Source: a virus
Lineage: Duplodnaviria; Heunggongvirae; Uroviricota; Caudoviricetes
IMG/VR virus record: IMGVR_UViG_2657245660_000016
Location: 1-8,587 of that record
Length of the DNA stretch: 8,587 nt
Strand: one strand, 5' to 3'
In this document: piece by piece, positions 2,169 through 8,587 of the stretch
Layout: every line of letters begins with the position of its first letter
How positions within the stretch are numbered: position 1 is the stretch's first letter
The notes under the pieces: generated by a model
What the model was told of the DNA's origin: nothing
What the model saw: the letters and a program-made list of their open reading frames with translations, nothing else
Database searches by the model: none
Made by a program: the position numbers and the translations under genes

Positions 2169-2357
2169 TCACGAGGACAGAAGTTTCTCGCAATTAAAAT
2201 TTATCAGCTTTACTTTCTGCTCTCTGGACACGCCTGCTTCTTTTTTCCCTGAGAGCATTTTTTCGCATTCTGATTTCGTTAATTTAGATTTTGAATATCT
2301 TGTCCAGTTAGTAGGAGTGCCACCTTCTTTTTCAATAGTGGCAGTTATTTTATACAT
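2169..2357 (-). CDS. ydaC: Small prophage protein, YdaC-like (DUF1187-type), 62 aa
   Basis: Start moved to the internal ATG at 2357-2355, which has a strong SD (GGAGGTG, 5-nt spacing). This start overlaps the ralR stop by 8 nt (ralR ...CAT GTA TAA; ydaC ATG TAT AAA), indicating translational coupling. The position between xis and ralR matches Rac gene order. Family assignment is from memory. Confidence 0.65.
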   Translation of the reverse strand: MYKITATIEKEGGTPTNWTRYSKSKLTKSECEKMLSGKKEAGVSREQKVKLINFNCEKLLSS

Positions 2358-6152: not shown

Positions 6153-6323
6153 TTAAAGTTCGTGTGCCATCTGGTCTTTTTCGGCACAATTTTCACTACA
6201 ATATTTTTTCATTTCCGTCGTTGGGATAACTCCACGCATGAAATGAAGTGGTCTTTTAATACTTTTGCTTTCTTCAATTCCTTTATTGCAAAGGTGATAA
6301 GCACATTTTATTTTCTTAGTCAT
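6153..6323 (-). CDS. ydaE: YdaE-like small Cys-rich (probable zinc-binding) protein, 56 aa; absent from the ORF track
   Basis: Hand translation of the minus strand gives [56 protein letters not shown], ending TAA at 6155-6153. The ATG at 6323-6321 overlaps the kilR stop (TGATG). Four Cys are arranged CxxxxC...CxxxC. Position between recE and kilR matches Rac. Confidence 0.75.
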   Translation of the reverse strand: MTKKIKCAYHLCNKGIEESKSIKRPLHFMRGVIPTTEMKKYCSENCAEKDQMAHEL

Positions 6324-6544
6324 CACCATGACTCCGCCTTTACAGGTAAACCATCACGGCCGAGGAAGACTTTAATCATGCAGTCAGAAATGCATGTTTT
6401 TGTAGTCAGGCTACGAATATAAAGTTTTCGCTTTTTAATATTGTTTGCCGAGGCGATATATGTCCGACCTTCATGAAGAACATAATCGCCAGGAGTCACA
6501 CACTGACGTGGTATTTCATCAGTTCCGAAGTGATGAGCAATCAT
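6323..6544 (-). CDS. kilR: KilR, FtsZ-targeting cell-division inhibitor (73 aa)
   Basis: 73-aa ORF ([35 protein letters not shown]...) with a strong SD AAGGAG 6 nt upstream of the ATG. Sequence and position fit Rac KilR as I recall it. Confidence 0.8.
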
Positions 6545-6590
6545 AATTATCTCCTTAATAAATTTCTCGTATTAAGAAAATTCCAGAAAA

Positions 6591-7061
6591 CTATTTAATA
6601 CTCAGCAACTGCTCGACGGTCATATTTTTAATTGCGCTTCGGTTTACAAGAGTCCAGCCCTGTTTCTCCAGATAAAGGCGGAAAGTGTCCAGGGTACAGA
6701 CGAGAGCGCCATCAGGAACGGTTTCAGTGAATTCGACGTTGCCGAATTTGTCGAAGCGAACAACCAGAGTGCGCCCATCGCCCGGAATGATTTTGTTTGT
6801 GGGAGTGGTATTATTCTGGCGTAGCTCTGCTTCCATGCGGTCGAACTCAGCGATGTAGGCCTCTTTGAATGCAGCGGCTTTTTTGCCAGTGAAACCCATC
6901 ACCAGGAAAACGAAGCCGTTTTTGGTGATTTGGTACATTGGGAGTTTGCGCCCGGTTGAGTCGGTGTATTCACTTGGCTTAAAATTAAGCTCAGTGAATT
7001 CTGAGGAACATTCCAGAGCTTCAATTTTTTGAATGACGTTTTCAATAGCTACATCCAACAT
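6591..7061 (-). CDS. Rha-family phage regulatory protein-like (N-terminal Rha/pRha-type domain, uncharacterised C-terminal half), 156 aa
   Basis: Residues about 30-80 (SEYTDSTGRKLPMYQITKNGFVFLVMGFTGKKAAAFKEAYIAEFDRMEAEL) follow the conserved pattern of Rha-family regulators as I recall it (…Y.dsqGr..pmY.lt.dGF.lLvmgftG.kA..fK..yI..F..mE..L). SD AGGTGAG lies upstream of the ATG at 7061. It occupies the slot where K-12 Rac carries sieB. Confidence 0.65.
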   Translation of the reverse strand: MLDVAIENVIQKIEALECSSEFTELNFKPSEYTDSTGRKLPMYQITKNGFVFLVMGFTGKKAAAFKEAYIAEFDRMEAELRQNNTTPTNKIIPGDGRTLVVRFDKFGNVEFTETVPDGALVCTLDTFRLYLEKQGWTLVNRSAIKNMTVEQLLSIK

Positions 7062-7472
7062 TTTCTCTCACCTTTCATCACTGAAGTGAACTTTGTTGAT
7101 GCGGTGCCTGGTGCCTCCAGGTGACGTTAACCAGTTAACAATTAACGCCGGATAATCCACCCATAACACTGATGCTTTTAACTGTGCCGCGTGCGCTCAG
7201 CCGCATTCACCGCATCACAAAATTCACTTTAAAAAGGGGCGGCAGGGCAGCCACGGAGTAGAACTGATGCCGCCAAGACTACACACAGCAATGTCGTTAT
7301 TTACAACCGGAGGCGCACTCCCACCATTTAAATTTAACAGACAAGACCGACTCTTTATGGATATCGGAAATGCGCCTTCGTGTTGTGCCCGGTTTTATTT
7401 CACCACCTCCGGGCTTTGGTGGTTTCTGCTATACCCCTACAGCGAGAATATTGAATTAATCCAAATAATGGA

Positions 7473-7625: not shown

Positions 7626-7695
7626 GTTGACCTCATTTCCCCTTAACGCCGGGTGGCGGAACTAAAACCTACAGCGCCGTGCTGTTCTTGATGTG

Positions 7696-7796
7696 AATAT
7701 TAGTAACACGGATATTTTAAGTCAACAGTATGGCGTATGATATTTTTGATTTAGTAACTATGTAAATGTTTTTCAAGGGAAAAATATTAGTTACAC
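7696..7796. promoter_or_regulatory. Candidate OL-type operator set: 14-bp direct repeats AATATTAGTAACAC (7696-7709) and AATATTAGTTACAC (7783-7796), plus related TTAGTAACTA (7751-7760)
   Basis: Two copies identical at 13 of 14 positions lie 87 bp apart, with a third partial copy between them. The AATATT/TTAGT motif also recurs in the divergent promoter region at 8363-8368, 8401-8405 and 8412-8417. Confidence 0.4.
7697..7725 (-). promoter_or_regulatory. PL-like early-left promoter (sigma-70 -35 TTGACT, 17-bp spacer, -10 TAATAT, read on the minus strand)
   Basis: The plus-strand agtcaa at 7720-7725 is the -35 and atatta at 7697-7702 is the -10, with an exact 17-bp spacer. The predicted start near 7690 gives a roughly 65-nt leader to the ydaF-like ATG. 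The -10 overlaps a repeated 14-mer. Confidence 0.45.
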
Positions 7797-7821
7797 AGCT
7801 GATTTGCAGAAGTTATGGCAC

Positions 7822-7851
7822 AAAAAAACCGACTAAGACGTCGGTTTTTTT
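7822..7851. terminator. Bidirectional rho-independent terminator downstream of the repressor gene
   Basis: A7 run at 7822-7828, stem ACCGAC (7828-7833) pairing with GTCGGT (7840-7845), loop TAAGAC, T7 run at 7845-7851. It sits 27 nt past the repressor stop. Confidence 0.65.
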
Positions 7852-7877
7852 GTTGTGGATAGGGTAGTGAGTGGTGG

Positions 7878-8339
7878 CTACTGGTTACGTTTCTTTAGTG
7901 CCAGCATGTTCTCGAAGGCTTCCTCATAGAGCTTGTTTAGTCCACGTAGCTGGTTAAGGAGTTTGGCTTTTTCTGACGCAGGTAGAATCTCGAAGAGGTT
8001 AAGTAACTCTGCCTGTTCTTCATTGACCAGCCTCCATCCTTTGCCTGAAAAGCTATCATCATAAGTATCTGATGATCTTACATAATTCATTAAGTCTTTA
8101 AGGTCTTCTCGAATGTCCTCTGGTTTTACCTTTAACAGAGCCGCAAATTTTAGCGCAGCGTCGGTATTTACCGGTATCTTGCCGTTCAGATACTGGCTAA
8201 CGGTGCCTTGAGATTCGAATCCCAACAACTCAGCCGCCAGCTCTTGAGTCAGCTTCAGCTCTTTTTTTCTTGCATTCCATGCGGCTTTTAAATTCTTGCT
8301 CGCTTCTGGAGTTGCAATCACTTCGCGTGTTTTTTTCAT
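7878..8339 (-). CDS. Prophage immunity repressor, CI/RacR-like, HTH-XRE N-terminal domain without LexA-type peptidase domain (153 aa)
   Basis: The N-terminal region LTQELAAELLGFESQGTVSQYLNGKIPVNTDAALKFAALLKVKPEDI is a classic XRE/Cro-CI helix-turn-helix. The C-terminal 60 aa are helical and charged with no Ser/Lys autopeptidase motifs. The gene is divergent from a cro-like gene. There is no SD before the ATG, which suggests a leaderless mRNA as for lambda cI. Confidence 0.85.
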   Translation of the reverse strand: MKKTREVIATPEASKNLKAAWNARKKELKLTQELAAELLGFESQGTVSQYLNGKIPVNTDAALKFAALLKVKPEDIREDLKDLMNYVRSSDTYDDSFSGKGWRLVNEEQAELLNLFEILPASEKAKLLNQLRGLNKLYEEAFENMLALKKRNQ

Positions 8340-8345
8340 ACATAG

Positions 8346-8373
8346 AGTTTATTTGTTTTACCAATATTATCAA
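8346..8373 (-). promoter_or_regulatory. Candidate PRM-like promoter for the repressor (minus strand -35 TTGATA, 16-bp spacer, -10 TAAACT), probably giving a leaderless transcript
   Basis: The -10 ends about 6 nt before the repressor ATG at 8339 and there is no SD, an arrangement like lambda PRM/cI. Motif match is moderate. Confidence 0.3.
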
Positions 8374-8387
8374 AGATAGTCTGACTG

Positions 8388-8416
8388 TTGATCTTTAAAA
8401 TTAGTGGAGCTAATAT
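8388..8416 (+). promoter_or_regulatory. PR-like promoter for the cro-like gene (-35 TTGATC, 17-bp spacer, -10 TAATAT)
   Basis: TTGATC at 8388-8393 and TAATAT at 8411-8416. The SD GAAGG at 8436-8440 sits 6 nt before the ATG at 8447. The -10 uses the same hexamer as the PL-like promoter and lies within an AATATT-containing repeat. Confidence 0.45.
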
Positions 8417-8446
8417 TTGTTCGAGGCATAACGTAGAAGGTTGGCT

Positions 8447-8587
8447 ATGAACTTAAGAGACTATTTAAAAGAGAAACATATCACCCAGTTACAGTTTGGG
8501 AAGCTAACGGGTTTATCTCAGGTGCATGTAAGTCGAGTGCTGGGGGGCTATGAAAGATTCAGCCCTGAAAAAGCATTACGTGTTGCT
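8447..8587 (+). CDS. Cro/YdaS-like HTH DNA-binding protein (5' part only; runs off the window)
   Basis: ATG with good SD. The translation MNLRDYLKEKHITQLQFGKLTGLSQVHVSRVLGGYERFSPEKALRVA has a helix-turn-helix signature (…GLSQVHVSRV…). It is divergent from the repressor, as cro or ydaS is. Confidence 0.75.
   Translation, partial: MNLRDYLKEKHITQLQFGKLTGLSQVHVSRVLGGYERFSPEKALRVA

Follow-up and report, generated by a model that had tools for sequence, protein, structure and literature searches.

A known counterpart of the locus analysed here is the isrK-orf45-anrP-isrJ locus of the Salmonella prophage Gifsy-1, which Hershko-Shalev et al. (2016; PMC4825925) dissected experimentally. Part of the transcription that starts at the isrK promoter of Gifsy-1 reads through the IsrK terminator, and the long RNA that results is translationally silent (PMC4825925). 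Short IsrK, acting in trans, exposes the ribosome site of orf45, to whose translation that of anrP is coupled; the short RNA of Gifsy-1 thus activates rather than represses (PMC4825925). Expression of AnrP raises the level of antQ mRNA, and the prophage is induced (PMC4825925). The RNA STnc1160 is processed from the orf45 region, and IsrK has been likened to seqA of P4 (PMC4825925). In Shigella dysenteriae, orf45 is fused to anrP (PMC4825925), as it is in the E. coli loci described below. C4-type RNAs are also found in the immI region of P1/P7 (c4 RNA-icd-ant) and in P4 (CI RNA with seqA/seqC), where they gate a downstream anti-repressor or replication operon (PMC4825925, in part).

The Rha family (phage phi80 rha; PF09669/TIGR02681) enters the comparison through a significant domain match of the protein considered here, and the intact form of its gene is named 'Rha family phage regulatory protein' by PGAP. 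The biochemical role of Rha is poorly defined.

Here we describe an ORF in a stretch of phage DNA of 8,587 nucleotides, hereafter the window. A preliminary description of this DNA had placed an ORF of 156 aa at 6591-7061, beside kil in the early-left operon. Both statements are borne out. The ORF list gives an ATG-to-stop frame of 156 aa on the minus strand at 6591-7061, with its ATG at 7059-7061. This frame lies directly upstream of kilR (6323-6544, minus strand) in a Rac-like early-left region; kilR, identified by the PGAP and Pfam KilR annotation of identical loci, has the same orientation and starts 46 bp 3' of the ORF.

The ORF at 6591-7061 and its deletion junction

To place the ORF among related prophages, window 6300-7400 was compared by megablast with 5,426 complete E. 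coli genomes. The number of places that this 1,101-base query matched in a genome had a median of 2 and reached 9. In the Rac-like prophages of STEC strains, loci with 99.9% identity were found, always as two pieces that cover 1,479 bases for the 1,101-base query. One such locus, L001 in NZ_CP027388, served as the reference for a pairwise alignment with the window. Positions 7739-8116 of L001, i.e., 378 bp, are absent from the window, and the rest of the alignment is identical. At the junction (window 7038-7042) there is a 5-bp microhomology, GTTTT on the plus strand and AAAAC on the coding strand, which stands at both ends of the 378-bp segment in the intact loci and is left as a single copy in the window.

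Aligned to L001, the ORF consists of eight upstream codons (MLDVAIEN) joined in frame to residues 37-184 of a Rha-type, AnrP-like gene. Its ATG and first codons (7043-7061, minus strand) correspond in the intact loci to DNA upstream of the isrK promoter. The length of the missing segment is a multiple of three, and the ORF stays open because, in the intact loci of E. coli, no stop interrupts the one frame that leads from the upstream ATG across both RNAs to the gene, a frame annotated by PGAP as a 282-aa protein. The 156-aa ORF is an in-frame fusion left by a deletion between short direct repeats, and not a complete gene. The flanks differ from the intact alleles by about 1 base in 1,101, so that the deletion is recent and neither decay nor selection can be read from it.

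The distribution of the junction was assessed with a 79-base probe (window 7000-7078), searched against the same 5,426 genomes. The probe matches 52 of them. In 31 of the 52, its two halves (query 1-43 and 39-79, a 5-nt overlap) are found 378 bp apart, and in the remaining 21 one half only is matched. The junction allele is present in none of the 52, and is absent from all 5,426 complete genomes. The exact 156-aa protein does occur on eight contigs, one from an NCBI assembly and the others from Logan assemblies of sequencing runs. The NCBI contig (LJWY01000063.1 of GCA_001440355.1) is 100% identical to the whole window. All seven loci that were fetched carry the junction, at 99.6-100% identity to the window, which rules out an assembly artefact; the deletion allele is natural. 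The Logan contigs with the allele (L003-L008) all end at window 7126 or 7133, in the STnc100-like leader described next, probably because other lambdoid prophages in these genomes carry further copies of this leader.

The signals that remain around the ORF are few. A Shine-Dalgarno-like GGTGAG, read off the sequence at 7067-7072 (minus strand), lies 5 nt 5' of the ATG and may serve as its ribosome site, so some product from the ORF is possible. Further upstream, the window keeps a leader (7078-7287, minus strand), which combines an STnc100-like stretch (7078-7247; 41.8 bits in Rfam, below the gathering score of 47) with a DicF-like sRNA (7237-7287; 54.7 bits, gathering score 48). A terminator scan places a terminator-like hairpin at 7239-7254, inside the DicF-like sRNA. 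This leader aligns with that of K-12 Rac, which carries the sRNA kilS, and transcripts that reach the ORF must pass through it. A promoter scan calls no promoter-like site at the window junction. Having no promoter of its own and lying 3' of the DicF-like terminator, the ORF could be transcribed only within an early-left transcript that reaches kilR.

The deleted segment compared with Gifsy-1, P1/P7 and P4

To determine what the deletion had removed, the intact reference locus was searched with Rfam. Two RNAs were found on its coding strand, namely IsrK at 8089-8013 (68.6 bits, gathering score 50) and a C4 antisense RNA at 7988-7901 (78.1 bits, gathering score 45). Neither C4 nor isrK is found in the window by this search, even at E <= 1. 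The isrK family was matched in L001 and in five other loci. A sigma-70-type promoter in L001 (TTGAAA, 17 nt, TATAGT; 10 of 12 matches) ends 7 nt before the start of the isrK model, and IsrK itself ends in a terminator hairpin. The two hexamers stand at the same positions in six loci: L001, Gifsy-1, three Stx-type phages and one Salmonella phage. In the intact loci, the ATG that opens the window ORF lies 51 nt upstream of the isrK transcription start.

Overlapping C4 and lying downstream of it, an orf45-like leader ORF with two in-frame ATGs (MVGRM...) runs into a GAGG-preceded ATG that opens the 184-aa protein, MATIPTLSHPDV... in L001. Gone with the deletion are the -10 box and IsrK, C4 together with the leader ORF, the ribosome site and ATG of the gene itself, and its codons 1-36. 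Of the promoter, the -35 hexamer TTGAAA is kept in the window at 7040-7045, where it forms part of codons 6-8 and overlaps the microhomology. There is no tRNA or tmRNA in the 378 bp of extra DNA.

Gene calls for the intact gene vary between 184 and 282 aa. That a long protein frame is conserved across isrK was considered and is ruled out by stops in Gifsy-1 and in phage TL-2011c, and also because the longest ORF begins upstream of the conserved promoter. Several annotated CDSs of 282-383 aa span the isrK promoter, IsrK with its terminator, and C4, e.g., L001 7292-8140 (minus strand) and those annotated 'antirepressor' in L013 (944-2095) and L014 (1073-2095). They appear to be gene calls that extend too far, with the Rha or Ant protein itself beginning 3' of C4. 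The Pfam family PF10554 ('Phage_ASH') has a match in the 282-aa PGAP protein, at aa 14-108 (E 2.6e-15; L001 7846-8140, minus strand); the corresponding DNA is missing from the window. The matching stretch is the translation of the isrK and C4/orf45 RNA region, and PF10554 may largely model a translated structured RNA together with a short leader ORF.

The Gifsy-1 locus follows the same order, with isrK (79.3 bits), C4 (69 bits), STM2616 and isrJ. STM2616 is taken as the AnrP gene because it lies between isrK/C4 and isrJ; in the Gifsy-1 paper, the SL1344 tag is SL2578. Gifsy-1 and the intact relatives of the window thus share a promoter, IsrK with its terminator, a C4-type RNA with a leader ORF that has two ATGs, and a protein of about 185 aa. 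By sequence, AnrP and the Rha-type proteins are distant homologues with a common two-domain layout. The two systems differ in the head domain, which is ORF6N (PF10543) in AnrP and Rha (PF09669) in the family of the window; in the leader ORF, which in the E. coli loci continues in frame into the protein but ends in an overlapping AUGA in Gifsy-1; and in the site of the cassette, which lies in the early-left operon beside kilR here, but beside the Q antiterminator gene in Gifsy-1. Compared with Gifsy-1, the window copy is without the whole leader and 36 codons. Of the parts of an IsrK/C4 cassette, it retains homology to AnrP, and lacks both the isrK promoter with IsrK and C4 with the leader ORF. 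In Gifsy-1, the sRNA isrJ lies just 3' of anrP; at the same position in phage TL-2011c, just 3' of a Rha-family gene, there is a match to the sRNA-Xcc1 family (79.6 bits; L016 2323-2406, plus strand).

The isrK-C4 leader is found in 211 phage records; the names given to annotated DNA under the leader matches include antirepressor, Ant, Rha family, transcriptional regulator and ash family protein. Like the RNAs of P1/P7 and P4, the RNA lost from the window is a member of Rfam family C4 (RF01695). Unlike in P1/P7, where the cargo is Ant, the cargo protein here is not P1 Ant, and in contrast to both P1/P7 and P4, no RNA machinery of the C4 type is left in the window. The c4-a1b1 target motif scores 48.1 bits in the isrK region of Gifsy-1, against a gathering score of 46.7, and only 18.8 bits in L001.

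A truncated Rha domain and its C-terminal partner

The preliminary description had assigned residues of about 30-80 to a Rha-type domain. The family assignment is correct, but the extent is not. Pfam Phage_pRha (PF09669) matches the 156-aa protein with E 2.6e-24 (86.1 bits; cut-off 29.9), and TIGR02681 with E 1.3e-25 (89.6 bits; cut-off 45.95). The Phage_pRha match covers aa 7-77 of the window protein and positions 15-90 of the 91 in the profile; that with TIGR02681 begins at position 28 of 108; and the best PHROG match, phrog_995, begins at position 135 of 307. All three matches start inside their models, and a missing N-terminus was therefore suspected. In the intact 184-aa protein, Phage_pRha is matched over positions 1-90. 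Relative to the Rha family, the window copy is without profile positions 1-14 and the residues that precede them; that is, the N-terminal strand-strand-helix is absent and the domain is incomplete.

The same result was obtained from an alignment of homologues (A2). The window protein is the sole Rha-type row without the conserved N-terminal 33-36 residues, which are present in all 33 others, and it lacks the near-invariant P10, T21, S23, A27, F30, K32 and H34. Most Rha-type rows of this alignment are 181-197 aa long, and matches of 183-188 aa are common in the homology search.

A structural model of an intact relative (P0006) was created with AlphaFold (mean pLDDT 79.7). Its N-domain starts with strands 12-15 and 18-22 and helices 23-30, 34-42 and 48-54, and continues with strands 55-61 and 67-74 and helix 75-82. 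A long helix (88-111) leads to the C-domain, which has strands 126-131 and 137-143 and helices 152-161, 169-173 and 177-181. The window protein begins at the equivalent of residue 37, and thus lacks both strands and the helix that precede this point (12-15, 18-22 and 23-30), as well as the first part of helix 34-42. What remains of the Rha (KilA-N-like) N-domain, from within helix 2 onward and hence without strands 1-2 and helix 1, is encoded with the linker helix at 6831-7037 (minus strand). In an AlphaFold model of the window protein itself, the remaining secondary structure is kept (mean pLDDT 78), a prediction that is driven by the alignment and says little on stability. With Foldseek, this model has no match in the PDB below E 0.07. 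The named matches in BFVD are mostly phage 'Regulatory protein' entries, and most of the significant alignments span 77-96 columns; none gives a name for the C-domain.

The C-terminal domain (6591-6830, minus strand; about 70 aa) is intact. Structure prediction of this half, which the preliminary description had proposed, yields a beta hairpin and three short helices, with no fold match. The statement that the C-terminal 76 aa match nothing that could be named holds as far as Pfam is concerned, in which the C-terminal 76-79 aa have no match, and a sequence search of solved structures likewise gives none below E 0.55. It does not hold for PHROG, where the C-terminal 79 aa match phrog_25059 (E 5.5e-32), phrog_995 and phrog_2379, the last annotated 'anti-repressor' (E 2.7e-6). 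Gifsy-1 AnrP belongs to phrog_2379 over its full length (E 3e-98), and the region matched by the C-terminal 79 aa is positions 120-180 of that family. BLASTP of AnrP against the protein is not significant (E 0.14), and the link to AnrP therefore needed profiles. In a comparison of alignment A2 with the AnrP family by hhalign, the two align with 82% probability (E 1.1e-5) over 159 columns, which include the C-terminal motif ...GN(V/I)K...GW.(L/V)(I/V).R. The same C-terminal module carries a Bro-N head in P0102. A phmmer search with the C-terminal 79 aa against 1.84 billion representatives gave 28 matches, 6 of them at E <= 1e-10; several weak matches to long repetitive proteins are taken to be spurious.

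These profile comparisons identify the unnamed half as an AnrP-type C-terminal domain, which is structurally uncharacterised. By analogy with AnrP, its distant homologue, the intact 184-aa gene would encode a Rha-type anti-repressor. The preliminary description would have regarded the protein as ordinary if it had a characterised homologue over its whole length. That situation is approached, in that an annotated family with many members covers the whole length and is distantly related to AnrP.

Competing readings of the locus and their consequences

Along the coding strand, the intact cassette consists of the isrK promoter, IsrK with its terminator, C4 overlapping the orf45-like ORF, and a 184-aa protein in which a KilA-N-like Rha N-domain is connected by a long helix to an AnrP-like C-domain. 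By analogy with Gifsy-1, the long transcript would be translationally silent until IsrK, in trans, opened the leader ORF. Translation would then continue into the protein, by way of a fusion here and by coupling in Gifsy-1, and the 184-aa protein would counteract a prophage repressor. In the window, the 378-bp deletion between two AAAAC repeats has fused the rest of the gene to an ATG that once lay upstream of the promoter; any 156-aa product would be made from early-left read-through transcripts that continue into kilR, and the prophage would be left without an induction switch gated by IsrK/C4. Selection for this loss, e.g., because it removes promoter activity reading into kilR, is a matter of speculation.

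We estimate at roughly 80% the probability that the ORF is, as proposed, a deletion remnant of a riboregulated anti-repressor cassette with an inactive or crippled product. Because one third of the N-domain core is gone, the 156-aa product is most likely inactive as an anti-repressor. What counts against a loss of function is that the frame is intact, that GGTGAG precedes its ATG, and that the linker helix and the C-domain are complete. The intact frame, helix and C-domain also favour the opposite view, namely that the truncated protein works. Its AnrP-like C-domain would be the effector, e.g., the part that binds the repressor; freed of IsrK/C4 control and joined to a usable Shine-Dalgarno sequence and ATG within the early-left operon, the protein would be a minimal anti-repressor or a dominant-negative competitor. 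This view gains from the observations that the C-domain is constant while the heads are swapped (Rha here, Bro-N in P0102, ORF6N in AnrP), and that the allele is present on eight contigs from several sequencing runs. However, two of the four strands and one helix of the N-domain core are lost, along with the conserved N-terminal positions, and the gene's own promoter is destroyed. Moreover, the near-identity of the eight contigs (99.6-100%) fits a single recent event, with no selection seen, and the allele is missing from the complete genomes. A functional truncated protein is thus unlikely. About as unlikely is the broader proposal that the C-domain of about 70 aa is the real effector of IsrK/C4-gated anti-repressors, borne on swappable KilA-N-type heads, and that the deletion leaves in the window a minimal effector free of RNA control, or a dominant-negative form, which is expressed together with kilR from the early-left operon. 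By sequence, this domain is confined to a few clusters of enterobacterial prophage proteins.

The position of the ORF had suggested an intact accessory gene in the place of sieB, with a role in superinfection exclusion or host interference. The interval from kilR to the DUF1391 gene is indeed variable, as claimed: it holds sieB in K-12 Rac, in the order kilR (-), kilS sRNA (-), sieB (+) and ydaF (-), and no gene in two related prophages that likewise sit at yebY. SieB of Rac and lambda thus shares this interval with the Rha cassette, but has no sequence relation to it, is encoded on the opposite strand and has a different insertion point. In a four-way alignment, the Rha cassette lies between the conserved DicF/kilS-like leader and the ribosome site of kilR, whereas sieB is inserted beside ydaF, on the other side of the leader, in the opposite orientation and about 400 bp away. 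The notion of a sieB slot is therefore right as to the kilR-to-ydaF interval and wrong as to the site itself; on comparison of gene content, the Rha cassette and sieB occupy two different slots. The gene is, in addition, not intact. No family of PADLOC-DB 2.0 matches the 156-aa or the 184-aa form at E <= 0.1, i.e., there is no match to a defence model, and the family matches are to transcription-regulator and anti-repressor PHROGs. We consider an exclusion or host-interference gene very improbable. Of the three functions that the preliminary description had offered, anti-repression is the one that finds support, for the intact gene and through an isrK/C4 leader like that of Gifsy-1. Last, the short form could be thought ancestral, the 378 bp being an insertion elsewhere, since a 5-bp direct repeat around extra DNA resembles a target-site duplication. 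The extra DNA, however, encodes the N-terminus of a domain, collinear with Pfam positions 1-14 and present in every homologue; an insertion would have to split a promoter between its -35 and -10 boxes; and the complete unit of leader and gene recurs in Gifsy-1 and in Stx phages. The collinearity of the extra DNA with the start of a conserved protein domain rules out an insertion with a 5-bp target duplication, and an ancestral short form is hardly credible.

Other features of the window concern the prophage at large. The sRNA pair SraC/RyeA (-) and SdsR/RyeB (+) is found at 463-607, between yebY and the integrase gene (735-1811), so that the Rac-like element is integrated next to ryeA/ryeB, and not at ttcA as is K-12 Rac. 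A RalR/RalA type I toxin-antitoxin pair is present; its RalA antitoxin sRNA (219 bits) lies at 2173-2351 (plus strand) and runs antisense to both the DUF1187 gene and its neighbour ralR. Toward the end of the window (about 7688-8587), similarity to complete genomes is lost: the closest ones match no further than about 7688, and the next group no further than 7662. The repressor encoded there (7878-8339; 153 aa, HTH_3) is not of the same length as its counterpart in L001 (420 nt). Judged by these comparisons, the immunity region forms a mosaic with respect to the recE-kilR block.

In sum, the 156-aa ORF represents a known module in decayed form rather than a new exclusion factor. The preliminary description had singled it out as the best place in the window to look for something undescribed, and this cannot be upheld for a remnant that has lost promoter, riboregulators and native start, and with them the opening third of its N-domain. 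Many genomes carry annotated members of the gene family, and its regulatory design is known from Gifsy-1, so that the discovery value is small. The locus is nonetheless a worked example of an ORF with a good domain match that is yet a deletion fusion, the giveaway being a profile match that starts at position 15. For the intact gene, calls of 230-282 aa cross two genes for structured RNAs, with the longest beginning 5' of their promoter. The C-domain of a Rha protein is tied here to the studied AnrP, which provides a concrete hypothesis for the intact 184-aa genes of STEC Rac-like prophages.
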